A stretch of 59,022 nt of DNA, the filler included, from Ionaspis alba (lineage: Eukaryota): assembly GCA_964255285.1 (NCBI GenBank). It is 7 parts of 7 records of this genome, joined end to end, with 100 filler letters (N's around TTAATTAATTAA, not from the genome) between each part and the next. Parts side by side here need not be neighbours in the genome. Positions count along the whole stretch, not along the records: positions 8,477 to 16,851 come from CAXUUL010000751.1; 6 more parts are not named here. One strand, 5' to 3'. Within the stretch, counting starts at the first letter, position 1. Each line of letters opens with the position of its first letter. The position numbers and the translations under genes are program-made. This document shows positions 3,285-12,538 of the stretch, in pieces. A model generated the notes under the pieces. That model was not told the origin of the DNA. It made no database searches and worked only from the letters and a program-made list of their open reading frames with translations.

Positions 3285-6200
3285 ATGCCTGCGAAAGTGA
3301 TACCAACCCAGGACACTGCCGACGGGAGCAGCGTGAGTAGTGGGCGACTCTTCAGCCTACAGGGCAAGAAGGCAGAAAATCCCGCTCTGAAAAATCCCAG
3401 TCCCAGTGGTACGTGAATCACAAACCCCAGCTGGTTCTCCCGGGTACCTGCGTGTTTTGGCTGGACCCCCATTCGCTAACACACGACGTGGTAGACGGTC
3501 GAGCGCGCAAGAGGTTACAGAAAAGTACTTCCGATGGTTCAGTAGCAATCCAACGTCCAGAGGGACAGCCAGCAACCATTCCTGCAGAAACACGATCCAA
3601 TTTCACGAGCCGGAGGAGGCAATCCGTGAGAGAACAGAAAACACCCCTGGGTGCAAGGCCTCTGGAACTCTCCCCATCCAAGAGGTACGTCGCCAGGGTG
3701 CTCTAACCATCACATCAGATAGTCATCAGTACCACTGACCTTTCATATAAAGGTCAATTAGCAATACTTTTCAATCCTCGTATACTGCTGGACGCCCGAC
3801 TTCATCAAGCATAAGACAAATTCCTCATTCCCGGCAAGCTTCGACCAATTCAGTGTCTCGATTCAACTTTGGCTCCGCAGCTCTCGACGATAGAAATACA
3901 GTAGAGGCAAGTGCCGAAGCCTTCCAGTTCCTCCCTACGGTAAATTTCGACGATTTTCATACAAGCCTTGCGCAGGAGCGACCTGGTCTCAACAATGGAT
4001 TGTTGCCCAGAGGGAATGTCCTGACTTCCAGTCGAGGCACGGGGATCGAAAGCATCGGCAAGGGCAAAGGTATCGACGATGGGTCTTTGACAGCTGCTGT
4101 GCCTGTAGAAACGGGAACGCGCATAGCGAGAAGTGGGTCTTTTCTACGACGCCAAAACAGTGTCACACGCAACCAACAACCGCAATCCTCACATCCAGAG
4201 GCCATGCCTCCTCCAAGTGGCCCGCCGACGACCAAGAGTAGGCGCCAGAGCCAATTTCCTACACCAACACCAAGTTCTTCCATCAGCCGAACTCCCAGAA
4301 AGTCCATCGGACCAGGCGTGCTTACAAACAGCTCATCAGAGTATTCGTTTCTAGCCAGTGGACTTTCTTTCAAGAATGGACAAACCCAACAAGCATTAGT
4401 ATCGGGGTCAGCTGGTGGCGATTTCGCTATCCTGCAGGCAGAAGAGAGGAATCCCTCAGCACAAACTCGGAGTGCCAAAGCTAAATCGTTCCATGCACCA
4501 TCCAGAACTCCCCATGATTATCTCACTGCCTCTACGACCACTCCGGATGGTCCATGGGCCAAGCCGGTCGCTATACCACGTTCACCCAATCGAAGTGCAG
4601 AACGAGGCACTGCAACTCCATCCTCTGGAAAACGGCTGTCGGTCATGCCCGGGCACGCTACTGGACTCGGAGCACGGACAATTAGTCCCACTGATGCTCG
4701 TAGAATAAAAAGGATGTCTATGATGTCAACCGCACCGCCTCTTCCTTTCCCACCAAATGTCCCTATGCCAGATCAGCTTTGCCTTGGTAGGCTATCTATA
4801 GGAGACTCGCCTTCTTTTATTCCTCGAAAGAGTGTCACTCCGTCTTCAAATCGCACGACTCCTGATCACAATCGAAAGTCTTATAGTTCCGTTATCTCTA
4901 ACTCCTCAAACACCAGCTATAACTCTCTGAAGAACCCGACGGCTTCCATGAGAGTGCAGCAAAGCTCTTCCTTGTCTCGATTACCTACTCTCAAAAATCG
5001 CAGTGAGACTGCTTCTGCACCAAACGAAGAGGAAGTGCCCCCGGTTCCTGCGATCCCCAAAGCCTACGAGTCTCCGAAAACCGAGCACGAAACGCCATTC
5101 TTCAGTACCAGAAAGCCAAGCTTTCCTTTCGATTCGGGCAGCTTAAATAGTGCATCCACGGTTGATTATGTTTCTGCTCAGTCGTCTGACAAAGAGCAGG
5201 CACCAGCGCCACCACCAGTACTACCATCTCAGAATGATTCGAGACAGCGTCGAGGTCATACCGTGACGGCTTTAGCTCCTTCGGAAGAGAAGACCAGCCA
5301 TGGAATACAAAGCAATGGTAGAAATCTGCAGCCGCTAAGATTACCGCCGATAAATCTGCAGCCACTGAGTACTCCTACGGCAGATAAGATTGCGGCACTG
5401 CAGGACAGATCAATTGAGCCTCAGTCAGGAATAAGGACTCCGCCTCCAAGAAAAGGTGGCAGAAAAACCCCAAGCACTCCCATGACAGCTTCCAAAGCCA
5501 GCTTTTTCTCGAGACATCATTACAAAGAGGAAGCTGAGCCGCTCCCTGTACAGACACGAAGCAGCAGCTCGCACTACGCATTAAGGTCCGCAGCATCGTC
5601 GTACCGAGCGACAAGCAGCTCTAGTTCCAACGTACCACTGCCCCCAGAACATCGCGCCGGTCGTAAAGCCGTGTCTCCGTTTGTATCGTCGTCACTCCCG
5701 AAGGCTAGTCTAGATTTCGGTTCCCTACGCTCTAAACCTTCCGGAGAACACAATACCAATCTTGCAAGTCAAGAGATCAAGATTAATAAATTGAATGGCC
5801 CTCGTGCGCAAGTCACGTCTAAGGCGGGCAAGACTGAGACACGGAGTCAGCCTCCGAGTCCCGTGGAGAAGGAAGCACACTCTTTTGGATCTTCTTTGCG
5901 ACGGAAATTGAGTCTGACTCGCAAGAGGAGCGCATCCAAGACCGAGATACTATCAATAGGAGATGGCGAACATCCTCCACAACCGCCCAAGCATGATGCA
6001 ATGCCTCCACCTAGGCTGCCCGCGTCGGCTACTTGGAACGGCCCTTGGCTATCAAATCCAGAATCCGCGCAAAAGCCGAATTATCTCCATTCCAGAAGGA
6101 AAGCATCAAATCCAGAGTCGCTCATTCGACACGACAGGACACGGAGTGGTATATCTGTTATTGATGGAGCCTCTGACAAAGATTCGAACCAATTCCCAGG

Positions 6201-8051
6201 CACGAAGGTCGCGCAAGCTTCATTTAAAGTGCCTGAGACAATGGGAGTCTCTAGTTCCAAGCTCTCGGTGTCACACAAATCTACAGGATCAACAAAAACA
6301 ATGGGAATTGAGCCGCACCTCGATCGTGACGATCTCGTAGCAGAAGACGAGATGAGGAGACTGGCGCTGAAGCGTAAAGAAACTGAAGCGGCAGCCAAAC
6401 TGCTCGATGAACTACGTCGAAGGGCAATGCCAAAGGAGCGGGTCTCTCCAACCCAAGCTTTGCGAAGTGCTCGGCTCAACATCTTTGAGCGTGGCGAGAT
6501 TATTGATTACAAGGAAGTGTACTTTTGTGGGACACAGACTGCAAACAAGTATACTGGCGATTTACAGGCAGAAGGAGCTAATTTTGGATACGATGATGAA
6601 CGGGGCGACTACAATATTGTTTATGGCGACCATCTTGCTTATCGCTATGAAGTCATCGACATTCTCGGAAAGGGAAGCTTTGGGCAGGTTGTGCGCTGCA
6701 TCGACCACAAGACTGGCGGTCTGGTGGCCATCAAGATTATCAGAAATAAGAAGCGATTCCATCAGCAAGCTCTGGTTGAAGTCAACATCTTGCAAAAGCT
6801 GAGGGAATGGGTAAGTACTCTTTTCGACCGAGATCTTGGTTCGAATGCTAATCTTGGTATGATACGCAGGATCCACACAATAGGTACAGCATGGTAAACT
6901 TTGTACAGAGCTTCTACTTCCGGGCTCACCTATGTATTTCTACCGAATTGCTTGGGATGAATTTGTACGAGTTCATCAAGGTTCATGATTTCAAAGGATT
7001 CTCTTTGAAGCTAATTCGACGTTTCACCAAACAAATCTTGAACAGCCTTGTCCTTCTTAAGAGCCAAAAGGTCATCCACTGCGACCTGAAACCGGAGAAT
7101 ATCCTACTCGCACATCCTGCGCAGTCCGAGATCAAAGTCATTGACTTTGGGTCAAGCTGTTTGGAAAACGAAAAGGTGTACACCTATATTCAGTCACGTT
7201 TCTACCGCTCTCCAGAGGTCATACTCGGCATGACCTACGGGATGCCTATTGACATGTGGAGTATTGGGTGTATCTTAGCAGAACTCCTGACAGGATACCC
7301 GATCTTTCCTGGCGAAAATGAACAAGAACAACTGGCCTGCATCATGGAAATATTTGGTCCTCCAGATAAGCACTTGATAGAGAAAAGTACTCGCAAGAAG
7401 CTCTTTTTCGACTCCTTGGGCAAGCCTCGCCTGACCGTCTCTTCAAAGGGCAAGCGACGACGGCCGAGCTCGAAAACGTTGCAGCAGGCACTGAAATGCG
7501 ATGATGAGCCTTTCCTTGACTTCATTGCTCGCTGCCTCCGCTGGGACCCGGAACGCCGCCTCAAGCCTGATGAAGCTATTCATCATGAGTTCATTACCGG
7601 TATCAAGCCAGCTCCATCGCGGAACCTTCGACTCCTTCCGTCATCCTCTGCAAATGTCAACTCTTCACCAATCAAACGGTATAACTCCGTCCACACACCA
7701 TCGAGTACGATTCGACCTCTTCCGGAGCCGCCGGCCACAAGTCTAAAGGGCGGGGCAGCTGTGAAAGCTCGGGAGAGCCACAATGGTGGTTCCCCGAGCA
7801 GACCGACGCCCAAAAGATACTCGACAATGACAAGTCTTTCAAGTGGCACCAATCCCAAGAAGGCTTCGGGTGGTGCAATACCAGCCGTGACCTCAGCACT
7901 TCCTCGATTAGGTGGACCAAGACTTGCGAGTGGCAAGCCGGATCTAGCGAGTGCGGCGGCGGCTGCGGCGACCTTGGTAGGTCTACCAATTTACCCTCAA
8001 CTGAACACCCTCCTTACGAGCTGACAGGTGTCTCCGCAGAAGTCTAGATGA
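3285..8051 (+). CDS. DYRK-family dual-specificity protein kinase (Pom1/DYRK2-like) with long Ser/Pro-rich N-terminal region
   Basis: DH box (YDDERGDY), GKGSFGQV, HCDLKPEN, DFGSSC, YTYIQSRFYRSPE. Inferred introns ~3409-3494, 3685-3752, 6811-6869 and ~7977-8039. Start at 3285 is inferred from splice continuity and is less certain. Confidence 0.9.
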
Positions 8052-10211: not shown

Positions 10212-11426
10212 CTATCTTTTACCCGTAGCCTTCGGCCTCGGCTTACATTCATCTGTCTGAACGCCATGCAACATAACCTTGTTGGGCAACTGGGGTGTAT
10301 TTGTCGCATAGCCTTTACTCCAATCATAACTCACCGCATACGCAAAAATCGTACCATTCCTATTGAACGCCGTCGAGCTGATGGTGCCGCCCACCTCCGG
10401 GTAGCCCTTGAGACGGTGTTTGGCGTCTTTGTCCCAGAAATGAAAGGTGCCGTCACTTCCGGCGGTGCTGAAAGTGCCGTGGACGGGGTGGAAGGAGATG
10501 GCGTTTACGGAATACACGTTTGAGACGTCGCGGCTATTAGGGGGCGTTTGGCGGTGGCATTTGAAAGAGAAGTTGGCGCTGTTGTGGGGGAGGATGTGTT
10601 AGTGGATGTTTTGAAGGGGAGCTTTTGGGTTGGGGCTTACCTAGCGTCTTTGTCTTCGACATATTGGATGGCACATCGGCCCTCAATACTTCCTACTGCG
10701 AAGCCCGTGGCATCGGTAAAGCAGCTCACGACTCGCGTCTGCCACTTCAACGGGCTCTGTAGTGTCTTGTAGAACTTCGTCGGCTGGTCTAGATTCACAA
10801 CGTTGATGTACCGGTCTGCTGTCGCAATAACAAGCAGCTTGTCTTTGGAGTCCATGCTGTAGACTCTCTCCTGGCAATCTATCGTAGCAACTGGCGTTTG
10901 TTGCCGGAGATCCCAATACTTAATGGTCTTGTCCCAGGAGCCTGTGACTAGGACTGGTCCGTTCGAGTTTGCGACATCGACGAATCGCGAGCATCGTATC
11001 GGTTGCTCGTGCGCTGCTACTTGGGTTGCAGCGGTACTGCCGGAGGCGAGATCGATCATACGGGCTGCTTTGTCGGCGCCAGCTCCGACAACTTTGGTTC
11101 CATCCTGTGATACATATTAACCTCGAAGCTCGTAGCGGTGTAGGTTTAAGCGGCAGACTTACTTTCGACCAGCAACAGCTCAAGACGGGTCCTTCATGCT
11201 CAAACATAGCCTTTCCCTCACTTTGGCCCTTGTCGTTGATTTCGTAGATGCGCACTTTCTTGTCCCATGATGCCACAGCAAGATGCTCTGATTGTGAGGA
11301 GAATGCTAGCTCTGATATGCCGTCTTCTGGGGGTGCAGTGAGTGTAATATCTCTCGATATGTCTCCGGTCGCGTTGGCACCGGAGGTTGTGCTCGTGGAG
11401 GAAGCGGAACCAAAGAGGCCGGACAT
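10212..11426 (-). CDS. GLE2: WD40 poly(A)+ RNA export factor Gle2/Rae1 (SONA), 3 exons
   Basis: MSGLFGS..., LAVASWDKKVRIYE, SPLKWQTRVVSCF, GSIEGRCAIQY, FSFKCHR, FAYAVSYDWSKG; two GTAAG...CAG introns. Confidence 0.95.
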
Positions 11427-11629
11427 GATGGCGCAGGGTAAGTAGCGAGAGAAGGAAAGAAGGGAGACCGTGACGGTAATGGATAGCTGGTTCACACTCG
11501 CGAGAGGGTCATGGTGTTGAGCTTTTATGAGCTATGCTATTGAGGCAGCAGTGTTAACCTCCAGGCTTTATTCCCAAAGCTCAGCGCGAACTACGAACGC
11601 GCCAAGATTTCTGGAAAGCTCTCGCTAAG

Positions 11630-11651
11630 ATGGCGCTAGCACTAGCGCCAT
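11630..11651. promoter_or_regulatory. Perfect 10-bp inverted repeat ATGGCGCTAG-CA-CTAGCGCCAT in the divergent GLE2 / RNase MRP promoter
   Basis: Read directly from the sequence; lies ~48 bp upstream of the predicted MRP RNA 5' end. Function is inferred. Confidence 0.5.
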
Positions 11652-11698
11652 ATCGACATTAAGTTTCTCGGAAAAGTTCCTGAATCCTTTCTTTCCTC

Positions 11699-12201
11699 AC
11701 TCCTCGCTCAAAGAATCGCAATCAAAGCTTACAAACGGAGAGATGGCTCTCGTCCCCTCTGAATCACACAAAATGCTTTGGGAGAAAGTCCCCGGACACC
11801 TTTTCGCCCCCCAAGGGAGAAGAGAATTGCGGAAACGCGCCGCCATAAAAGCAAGCTTCGCGGCTGACTCCTCCCCGCCTCCCCATCCCTTATATCCCCT
11901 GCTCTTGGCCGTCTGTACTCTTCTTGCTCTTCTTCTCTCGTCTTGTGGAGCTCGGCCGGGGAGACCACAGTGACGATGATATGAGTCCGCGCTCTCCGTG
12001 CCTGCTTTACTACCGACTTGGGAAGTCTGAGCTTGGAGAGGAGGTCGGAGTTGTGCTGGGTACGAGGAGGGGATCCATAGGCGGTGGATGGAGGCTTTTC
12101 GTCGAGATGGATAGATATGCGATTGCCCTTCTACTCTTGTGTCTTTCGGGATGTGAGGGCAAGGGGGTAACTCGATGGGGCTTATTCTTGAGGCGAGGAG
12201 T
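11699..12201 (+). ncRNA. NME1: RNase MRP RNA
   Basis: P1: ACTCCTCGCTCAAAGAAT pairs with ATTCTTGAGGCGAGGAGT. P2: AATCGCA pairs with TGCGATT after CR-IV ATAG (12111). P3: AAGCTTACAAA...AATGCTTT. CR-I GAAAGTCCCC (11784-11793) pairs in P4 with GGGGCTT of CR-V ACTCGATGGGGCTTA (12170-12184). P8-like TGCGGAAACGCG (~11828). Same order of motifs as yeast NME1. Confidence 0.92.
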
Positions 12202-12332
12202 CCCCTCTTTTTTTCCTGGGATCTGATACTTGGGCTTTGAGATACTCTCCCGCAAACTCTTATTGGGAGTAGGTGTCGAGGGCTGCAGGTCGCTGGGTCA
12301 TACTGGCCGGATTCGTTGTGGGCGTCGGTTGC

Positions 12333-12437
12333 TGTTCAGGTGATGATATAACAAACATAGAGTCAAGCACTGAGGTGCTCCGCTTGTCGGGGTGCCACTG
12401 AGCGACTACGTTTATGCGTTATGGTATCTGATGAACA
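12333..12437 (+). ncRNA. SNR66: Box C/D snoRNA, snR66 homolog (guide for LSU rRNA Um2417, yeast numbering)
   Basis: Terminal stem TGTTCA/TGAACA; C box GTGATGA 12340-12346; D' CTGA 12370-12373; D CTGA 12428-12431. Guide TAGAGTCAAGC (12358-12368) is complementary to LSU GCUUGACUCUA, and the D'+5 rule lands on the second U of GCUUGAC. Confidence 0.88.
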
Positions 12438-12438
12438 T

Positions 12439-12538
12439 NNNNNNNNNNNNNNNNNNNNNNNNNNNNNNNNNNNNNNNNNNNNNNNNNNNNNNNNNNNNNN
12501 NNNNNNNNNNNNNNNNNNNNNNNNNNNNNNNNNNNNNN
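12439..12538. other. Plain N100 scaffold gap (second example at 19024-19123); truncates the aconitase 3' end
   Basis: 100 N without the TTAA linker. Confidence 0.95.

Follow-up and report, generated by a model that had tools for sequence, protein, structure and literature searches.

The window under study, a stretch of 59,022 nucleotides (nt) from the genome of Ionaspis alba (assembly GCA_964255285.1), contains between positions 11701 and 12437 a conserved three-part non-coding unit. It is composed of an RNase MRP RNA, a structured spacer, and a box C/D small nucleolar RNA (snoRNA) of the snR66 type, all on the plus strand. The most informative feature of the locus is the spacer element, which was absent from a preliminary description of this DNA.

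The gene for the RNase MRP RNA, an orthologue of NME1/RMRP, is 498 nt in length and extends from 11701 to 12198 on the plus strand. A cmscan search with the Rfam models assigned it to RF00030 with a score of 101.4 bits against a gathering score of 50 (E value of 2.8e-27), and the alignment covers the full model, namely positions 1-266 of 266. RNase_MRP is the sole Rfam family to reach its gathering score anywhere in the window. The blocks GAAAGUCCCCGGAC, AUAGAUAUGC, and GAUGGGGCUUAUUCU, which we take to be CR-I, the CR-IV region, and CR-V, respectively, show high posterior probabilities in the alignment, and the closing helix P1 pairs. The preliminary description had claimed a complete RNase MRP RNA at this position, and the full-length match above the gathering score bears this out, although the start given there, 11699, was 2 nt off. 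It was likewise correct in stating that no credible open reading frame (ORF) accounts for the region. The ORFs of 76-100 amino acids that occur there in several frames are mechanical, without supporting evidence.

The box C/D snoRNA, an orthologue of yeast snR66 and Neurospora crassa CD2, is 105 nt long and lies at 12333-12437 on the plus strand. As can be read from the sequence, a terminal stem of 6 bp, formed by TGTTCA (12333-12338) and TGAACA (12432-12437), encloses a C box (TGATGA, 12341-12346), a D' guide (TAGAGTCAAGC, 12358-12368), a D' box (CTGA, 12370-12373), and a D box (CTGA, 12428-12431). The C, D', and D boxes and the terminal stem that characterize an snR66-type snoRNA are all present. 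A second antisense element, TGCGTTATGGTAT, is positioned directly 5' of box D at 12415-12427. The D' guide matches the Rfam consensus for snR66 exactly, as it does the guide of N. crassa Nc CD2. In box C/D guides the methylated position is set by the fifth-nucleotide rule, and the fifth nucleotide upstream of the D' box, A12365, would pair with a target uridine, which fits a Um site. On the basis of the identity of the guide, its predicted target is most likely the uridine of the large subunit (LSU) rRNA that corresponds to U2417 of yeast and U2379 of N. crassa. According to the accessible text of the respective reports, yeast snR66 guides 25S Um2417 (PMC8307265), and the N. crassa snR66 homologue Nc CD2 (EU780926) guides 26S Um2379 via its D' element (PMC2780460).

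A permissive scan of the 2.2 kb between 11000 and 13200 placed the Rfam family RF00477 (snosnR66) at 12328-12406 with 34.7 bits (E value of 0.0026), against a gathering score of 65. This is the best-scoring snoRNA family at the locus, yet it falls below the curated threshold, and its alignment ends on an inner CTGA at 12398 rather than on the true D box. Because RF00477 fails its gathering score, the assignment of homology rests on the boxes, the terminal stem, and the guide. The covariance-model check proposed in the preliminary description was thus passed by RF00030 and failed by RF00477, whereas the C/D snoRNA that it had placed on the strand of the MRP RNA stands on its boxes, its terminal stem, and a guide identical to that of yeast snR66. 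The spacer between the two genes, 12199-12332, measures 134 nt, close to the approximately 130 nt estimated there.

Conservation of the gene pair

A metagenome collection was scanned for a C box followed after 5-30 nt by CATAGAGTCAAGCNCTGA, and 39 loci were retrieved with flanks of 1500 nt. The scan is not exhaustive because the pattern would miss guides of the N. crassa type (AAUAGAG). Matches to RF00030 at or above the gathering score are present in 30 of these 39 snoRNA-anchored loci (16 of 20 and 14 of 19 in two sets), and every one of them lies upstream of the snoRNA and on its strand, with 89-211 nt between the 3' end of the MRP RNA and the C box. The same strand, a short spacer, and a conserved gene order thus characterize all 30 loci. 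When collapsed at more than 95% likeness, they represent 20 lineages, which become 21 with that of the window. The MRP RNAs of these lineages have diverged considerably, with a median pairwise identity of 58% (range 20-95%), and the nearest to that of the window is 75% identical. The preliminary description had proposed that the linkage extends beyond this genome and had called for a survey of the distances. The 30 loci, which include yeast-type loci such as L002 and loci like that of this Pezizomycotina fungus, support the first point and supply such distances.

Three further loci display sub-threshold MRP matches in the right place, L011 and L031 with 22.3 bits and L017 with 23.1 bits; L017 also carries TGGGGCTTA 134 nt before the C box. 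L014, with only 15 nt of upstream sequence, was not judged for an MRP RNA. The duplicates L010 and L021 were rejected as snoRNAs since, although they matched the pattern, they have no D box. True C/D snoRNAs with no MRP RNA in the sequence searched are those of the duplicates L027 and L028 (1500 and 881 nt) and of L035 (846 nt), the latter with a G+C content of 32%. The snoRNA of L027 (882-971) and L028 is of the snR66 type and well formed, with a GTTCA/TGAAC terminal stem, a C' box, and a D box, and one copy of this sequence resides on a 1-Mb contig. A scan of genome contigs anchored instead on a CR-V pattern of the MRP RNA yielded one locus, L040, on a contig of a bacterial metagenome-assembled genome. 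Its MRP-like match reaches only 21.8 bits, it has no spacer element, and it is uninformative.

The loci are of three kinds, namely AT-rich yeast-type loci, window-type loci, and a short-MRP group comprising L018 and L032, in which the MRP RNA measures 223 and 267 nt; L014 is counted with this lineage, whose flanking ORFs are too poor for a taxonomic placement. RF00477 attains 85.3 bits in the yeast-type locus L002 and 68.5 bits in L011 and L031, and these three are the only ones of the 39 to pass its gathering score. The Rfam model for snR66 therefore misses the snoRNA in most loci. Across the linked loci the length of the MRP RNA varies more than fourfold (the match in L008 spans 991 nt), and the spacer element and its spacing from the MRP 3' end are kept.

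The second antisense element of the snoRNA, TGCGTTATGGTAT, is kept in L001, L003, L005, L007, L020, L034, and L036, which suggests a second methylation target, predicted from the sequence to be a C at the fifth position. The corresponding stretch of N. crassa CD2, 5' of box D, reads differently. In L016 and L019 the box-D guide, CTACGACGGTAT, is similar to CUACAACGGUAU, which serves as box-D guide in another N. crassa snoRNA, CD18. This likeness fits the reshuffling of guides between snoRNAs reported in the accessible text of PMC2780460.

Structure of the spacer element

The spacers of the 21 lineages were printed and folded, which revealed the element, and a scan was then written for the recurring architecture. 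The latter consists of a basal stem of 6-7 bp, one or two variable hairpins, and a hairpin of 5 bp, whose 6-nt loop has the consensus GUCGAA and which runs without a gap into the 3' strand of the basal stem. In the window the element is Y-shaped, or tRNA-like, and occupies 12219-12314 on the plus strand, as delineated by the architecture scan, by the covariance model R1 described below, by covariation, and by RNAalifold. Its basal stem of 7 bp pairs GGATCTG (12219-12225) with CGGATTC (12308-12314) and is followed by a variable central arm. The 3' hairpin of 5 bp pairs GCTGG (12292-12296) with CTGGC (12303-12307) across the loop GTCATA (12297-12302), and abuts the basal 3' strand with no intervening nucleotide. 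A T7 (U7) tract at 12208-12214 on the plus strand is situated 10 nt past the MRP 3' end and 4 nt short of the element.

The scan finds the element in 19 of the 21 spacers and additionally in L011 and L017. Two of the 19 candidates, those of L007 and L034, were rejected as spurious, given their other loops and positions and the highest chance rates, so the element is present in 17 of the 21 lineages. No candidate was found in the L004 group (L004, L015, L024, and L030) or in L012. As controls, a hit was obtained in 428 of 4200 dinucleotide shuffles, or 10.2%, and in 2 of the 21 spacers when reverse-complemented. The element starts 13-27 nt past the MRP 3' end in 17 of the 17 lineages. Its distance to the snoRNA varies from 5 to 115 nt, with 5-25 nt in the window-type lineages, 18 nt in the window, and 5-10 nt in L001, L003, L005, L013, L020, and L036. 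In 12 of 19 lineages, the 14 nt that precede the element include a run of at least four T residues.

Covariation was evaluated on a plain MAFFT alignment of 17 element rows, referred to as A2. All 12 base pairs change on both sides, in a total of 45 cells. The covariation score is 0.775, whereas shuffles give 0.336 ± 0.033 and none of 500 reaches 0.775; sliding the partners by 1-3 columns lowers it to 0.203 or less. The pairing in A2 is 100% by construction because the scan demanded perfect stems, but this does not hold for the covariation. RNAalifold applied to A2 returns the same helices of 7 and 5 bp.

Our own covariance model built from A2, R1, scores 41 bits in the window (E value of 3.1e-7), and this is its sole significant match in the 59 kb. 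In 24 loci it likewise has one match apiece, and in every case this lies in the spacer; among them, the held-out L003, L022, and L023 score 29 bits. R1 has no match in the L004 group, L007, L034, or L012, nor in the snoRNA loci that have no MRP RNA, including the 881-1500 nt upstream of the snoRNAs of L027 and L028 and the corresponding sequence of L035.

Run X5 shows two contig versions of 12178-12319 at equal depth (∼41 each), with eight differing positions and a 1-nt deletion. Since the versions differ at equal depth, the source contains two haplotypes or strains. The second allele carries a T to C change at 12224, which converts a U·G pair of the basal stem into a C-G pair.

A long hairpin that might replace the element in four lineages was considered and dropped, as the z-scores were unsupportive except in L004 (-2.98). 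Three of the lineages that have no element (the L004 group, L007, and L034) share the motif GGGG(A/G)...CTTCAA immediately past the MRP RNA and GGCTTC(G/T)GGGGG immediately ahead of the snoRNA.

Resemblance to transfer RNA

The 7-bp acceptor-like and 5-bp T-stem-like helices form a 12-bp stack that is gapless in 19 of 19 elements, as it is in tRNA. The loop comprises six nucleotides (NUCRNA) in 18 of the 19, with the U and the C invariant, whereas the T loop of tRNA comprises seven (UUCRANY). The full connectivity of a class I tRNA is observed in six lineages (L001, L013, L017, L018, L026, and L032). There, a stem of 6-7 bp is followed by a UA linker and by a 4-bp GCUU/AAGC arm with a loop of 5-7 nt, which in five of the six includes GG. 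One linker nucleotide, the central arm, 3-4 nt, the 5-bp arm, and the basal 3' strand complete the fold. This D arm (UA-GCUU...AAGC) is restricted to the six lineages, and the element of the window, like the others, consists of the 7+5-bp stack and one central arm. The central arm does not have a 7-nt anticodon loop.

With its threshold set to 95%, ARAGORN calls the element of L018 alone, as a tRNA-Gln with an 8-nt intron, and makes no call in 1000 shuffles. Its 14 calls at a threshold of 80% were set aside as too noisy, given ∼6.5 per shuffled set. The element is not called a tRNA here because the tRNA finders fail on it, its loop has six nucleotides, and there is no anticodon loop. It is tRNA-like in shape but is not a tRNA, and it is perhaps tRNA-derived.

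Transcripts from the locus and its relatives

The transcript-type evidence comes from the contigs of relatives in a soil metatranscriptome, X1. Of its 41 contigs, four join 12198/12201 to the snoRNA at 12333, 12334, 12357, and 12414, and others extend a median of 172 nt past 12201. From X2, only pieces of the MRP 5' domain of a relative were recovered. The X1 contigs show that further relatives share the adjacency and that an RNA library contains sequence of the spacer. The preliminary description had claimed a single precursor; the covarying structure of the spacer and the four bridging contigs from relatives support this indirectly, and its further idea that the unit couples pre-rRNA cleavage with rRNA methylation is a conjecture.

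For yeast, the accessible text of bioRxiv 10.1101/352906 reports that RNA polymerase II (Pol II) is found on NME1 and snR66 and that depletion of Med14 removes it from both. Additionally, snR66 is described as a known Rnt1p substrate that undergoes processing by further ribonucleases as well, in the accessible text of PMC4334505, citing Lee, Lee and Chanfreau 2003. Because it is an Rnt1p substrate, yeast snR66 has a processed 5' extension. In keeping with this, canonical stems capped by AGNN lie between the element and the snoRNA in the yeast-type loci L002 (AGUU, 9 bp) and L009 (AGAU, 7 bp). The window spacer contains no Rnt1-type AGNN-capped stem.

Flanking genes

A WD40-repeat gene starts at approximately 11427 on the minus strand, and the ORF at 10920-11495 of that strand matches the Pfam WD40 model. 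The MRP RNA accordingly faces a divergent intergenic region, 11427-11700, presumed to hold the promoter of the unit. No TATA box was found in 11427-11700. By eye, a CT-rich tract is seen 5' of the MRP RNA in the window, and CT-rich tracts together with GCGCCAAG/TAGCGC motifs are common to it and the related window-type loci, whereas the yeast-type loci display TATA boxes.

Directly after the snoRNA, a run of 100 N (12439-12538) begins one base past its end, such that its 3' flank is unreadable. The run reaches the 3' end of an aconitase-family gene (Pfam) that is convergent with the snoRNA. The closest named relatives of this aconitase belong to lichen-forming Lecanoromycetes, namely Xylographa soralifera (86%), Hypocenomyce scalaris (84%), Candelina, Candelaria, and Pycnora. 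Xylona and the Onygenales rank after them, and other proteins give up to 92%. The aconitase thus assigns the window to a Pezizomycotina fungus. Elsewhere in the window, at 4204-8024, a protein kinase domain is distributed over two overlapping ORFs (positions 1-56 and then 61-263 of the Pfam model), presumably owing to an intron or a frameshift.

Proposed mechanism and alternatives

We consider it probable that the unit gives rise to one Pol II precursor, containing the MRP RNA, the oligo-U tract, the structured element, and the snoRNA, which is cut at the element. Pol II would transcribe the MRP RNA, the spacer, and the snoRNA from a promoter upstream of the MRP RNA, and the Y-shaped or cloverleaf fold would mark the endonuclease site at which the two RNAs are separated. 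If the cut falls at its 5' edge, the MRP RNA would retain a trailer of 13-27 nt, in most cases with oligo-U at its end, for 3' exonucleases to trim back to P1. Oligo-U 3' ends of the La/Lsm type are found on Pol III transcripts and on pre-U3. Cleavage at the 3' edge or beyond it would provide an entry for a 5'-3' exonuclease, with trimming to the terminal stem of the snoRNA or its snoRNP; in yeasts, an Rnt1 cut further downstream may serve as an alternative opening for the 5'-3' trimming. The D' guide of the mature snoRNA, TAGAGTCAAGC, would then direct 2'-O-methylation of the LSU uridine mentioned above. As the element is an RNA structure, with 5-25 nt left before the snoRNA in the window-type lineages, any transcript that carries it has to begin inside the MRP gene or upstream of it. 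Since the element keeps a fixed distance from the MRP 3' end, its first task may be the making of that end. In fungi the origin of this end, by Pol II in yeast as opposed to Pol III in animals, is poorly described, and an element 13-27 nt past it is a concrete candidate for a processing signal.

The minimal shape that RNase P and tRNase Z accept as a substrate is a 12-bp stack with a T-like loop. By analogy, these two enzymes may be named, tentatively, as the leading candidates for the nucleases acting at the element. An extended form of the proposal, which we entertain with some doubt, is that the element is a tRNA-derived punctuation mark used from budding yeasts to lichen-type Pezizomycotina and the short-MRP lineage, where RNase P would cut its 5' edge and tRNase Z its 3' edge. 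The RNase P cut would then give the Pol II-made MRP RNA an oligo-U end; in animals, the oligo-U 3' end of MRP RNA arises from Pol III termination. RNase P shares most of its proteins with its sister enzyme RNase MRP. If the extended proposal is true, the production of MRP RNA depends on the paralogue RNase P and is stoichiometrically tied to an rRNA methylation guide.

Several observations weigh against the single precursor and its processing element. The element is missing from 4 of the 21 lineages (the L004 group, L007, L034, and L012). L003 and L011 had to be left out of A2 as MAFFT misplaced their 5' strand, the complete pairing in that alignment follows from the way in which its rows were selected, and R1 misses L011 and L031. 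The fold stability of the whole spacer is unremarkable, with a mean z-score of -1.0, only 3 of 21 below -2, and +1.09 for the window. ARAGORN at its default settings finds no tRNA in the window or in 24 loci, and an Rfam search at E values up to 10 returns nothing for the element of L026. With respect to transcripts, the X1 contigs derive from relatives, and those that bridge the two RNAs do not prove one molecule, and an RNA library can contain DNA. X5, the only strong holder of the window sequence (0.88 of its words), is a run of unknown kind that behaves like source DNA. Finally, the accessible text of bioRxiv 10.1101/352906 lists five polycistronic snoRNA clusters in yeast, and NME1-snR66 is not among them, that of PMC2780460 lists N. 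crassa CD2 as intergenic, and the T7 tract at 12208-12214 could be a Pol III terminator.

The absence of NME1-snR66 from the yeast clusters and the intergenic listing of CD2 would equally suit two independent units, in which the element belongs solely to the 3' trailer of the MRP RNA, as a signal for 3'-end formation or termination, and the snoRNA has a start site of its own, with promoter elements overlapping the MRP gene or the spacer. The adjacency would then reflect a shared chromatin or regulatory context. Indeed, the same yeast text treats snR66 as its own gene, the element is held tightly to the MRP 3' end (13-27 nt) and loosely to the snoRNA (5-115 nt), and there are snR66-type snoRNAs with no MRP RNA within 1500 nt (L027/L028) or 846 nt (L035). 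We regard this arrangement as rather unlikely, however. The 18 nt between element and snoRNA in the window, and the 5-10 nt in six other loci, leave no room for a start site or separate snoRNA promoter downstream of the element, and 20 of the 21 spacers contain no TATA[AT]A motif. The X1 contigs bridge both RNAs, and all 30 of the gathering-score MRP matches lie upstream on the strand of the snoRNA, which likewise argues against it.

The T7 tract invites a reading based on Pol III, according to which the MRP RNA ends at this tract and a promoter within the element, resembling A and B boxes, drives a dicistron of tRNA-like RNA and snoRNA that is processed by tRNase Z as in plants. Runs of at least four T residues precede the element in 12 of 19 lineages but are missing from the other seven. 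Six lineages keep TAGCTTATGG and GTCGAA, putative A- and B-box motifs, where a tRNA has these boxes, but the part corresponding to the D arm and A box is missing in most lineages, that of the window included. Plant tRNA-snoRNA dicistrons do exist (PMC2780460, in its accessible text, citing Kruszka et al. 2003). In L026, however, Pol III would be stopped by tracts of T6 and T17 that separate the snoRNA from the element, most loci have no T run directly after the snoRNA, and yeast NME1 and snR66 are Pol II-occupied and Mediator-dependent according to the accessible text of bioRxiv 10.1101/352906. On balance, this reading is very unlikely. It is highly improbable that the element is a mere relic, namely a decaying tRNA gene with no present function in a tandem that is simply inherited synteny. 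Such decay could account for the cloverleaf connectivity left in six lineages, for the ARAGORN call in L018 at the 95% threshold and the failure of tRNA finders elsewhere, and for the loss of the element from 4 of 21 lineages. A neutral relic, however, would not keep 12 of 12 pairs by compensatory change at a median MRP identity of 58%, nor would it keep the invariant U and C of the loop or the distance of 13-27 nt.

Comparison with known systems

The two RNA families, and the annotation of their adjacency in yeast, are already known. In the gene table of PMC9731477, as far as its text is accessible, YNCN0013W (NME1) is next to YNCN0014W (SNR66) of Saccharomyces cerevisiae, both on the W strand, between SSN8 and KSH1. 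This agrees with the statement in the preliminary description that SNR66 adjoins NME1 on the same strand. The pair on chromosome XIV thus has the same genes, order, and strand as that of the window, and the yeast-type locus L002 has the MRP-snoRNA unit complete with the spacer element. The window differs from the yeast type in its MRP RNA of 498 nt, in a snoRNA that scores below the RF00477 gathering score, and in having no AGNN stem, unlike L002 and L009. In the literature covered, yeast NME1 and snR66 are treated as separate genes. Nc CD2 shares the architecture of the window snoRNA, with uca-GGUGAUGA at its 5' end, the D' guide UAGAGUCAAGC, and CUGAUG at its 3' end (PMC2780460). Its location is given only as "IR" in the accessible text of that paper, in which the term "MRP" does not occur. 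The fungal snoRNAome paper makes no mention of MRP, NME1, or synteny, and full-text searches, which did not reach most subscription journals, brought up no description of a conserved MRP-snR66 unit or of the spacer element. What the locus suggests as new is a polycistronic nucleolar RNA unit with a ribozyme RNA in first place and a spacer shaped like a tRNA. The tandem, together with the element as captured by R1, provides a strong annotation anchor for both genes in fungal genomes.

As regards tRNA-like punctuation, 3'-end formation by RNase P at a tRNA-like fold occurs in MALAT1-mascRNA and MEN-beta, and the spacer element is preceded by an oligo-U tract as in such systems. It differs from them in that it is not called a tRNA, its "T loop" has six nucleotides, it has no anticodon loop, and it mostly has no D arm. 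Both in these systems and in the plant tRNA-snoRNA genes, which are processed by RNase Z, a 7-bp stem on a 5-bp arm stands between two RNAs to be separated, as it does here. Dicistrons of the tRNA-snoRNA kind are known in plants only, according to the accessible text of PMC2780460, and the present unit would, if the tRNA-derived reading is true, be the first tRNA-like-snoRNA arrangement outside plants.

The yeast snR190-U14 and snR72-78 units, which depend on Rnt1, Rat1/Xrn1, and the exosome, likewise combine stable nucleolar RNAs on one strand with short structured spacers, and their maturation, by endonuclease entry and subsequent exonuclease trimming, is the mechanism proposed here. In the conserved spacer fold, a hexaloop is combined with a three- or four-way junction, whereas these yeast units employ a long stem capped by AGNN. 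Moreover, the first cistron is the catalytic RNA of RNase MRP rather than a snoRNA. If the single precursor is real, NME1-snR66 would become the sixth polycistronic unit on the yeast list, and an unusual one in having a ribozyme RNA as its first cistron.

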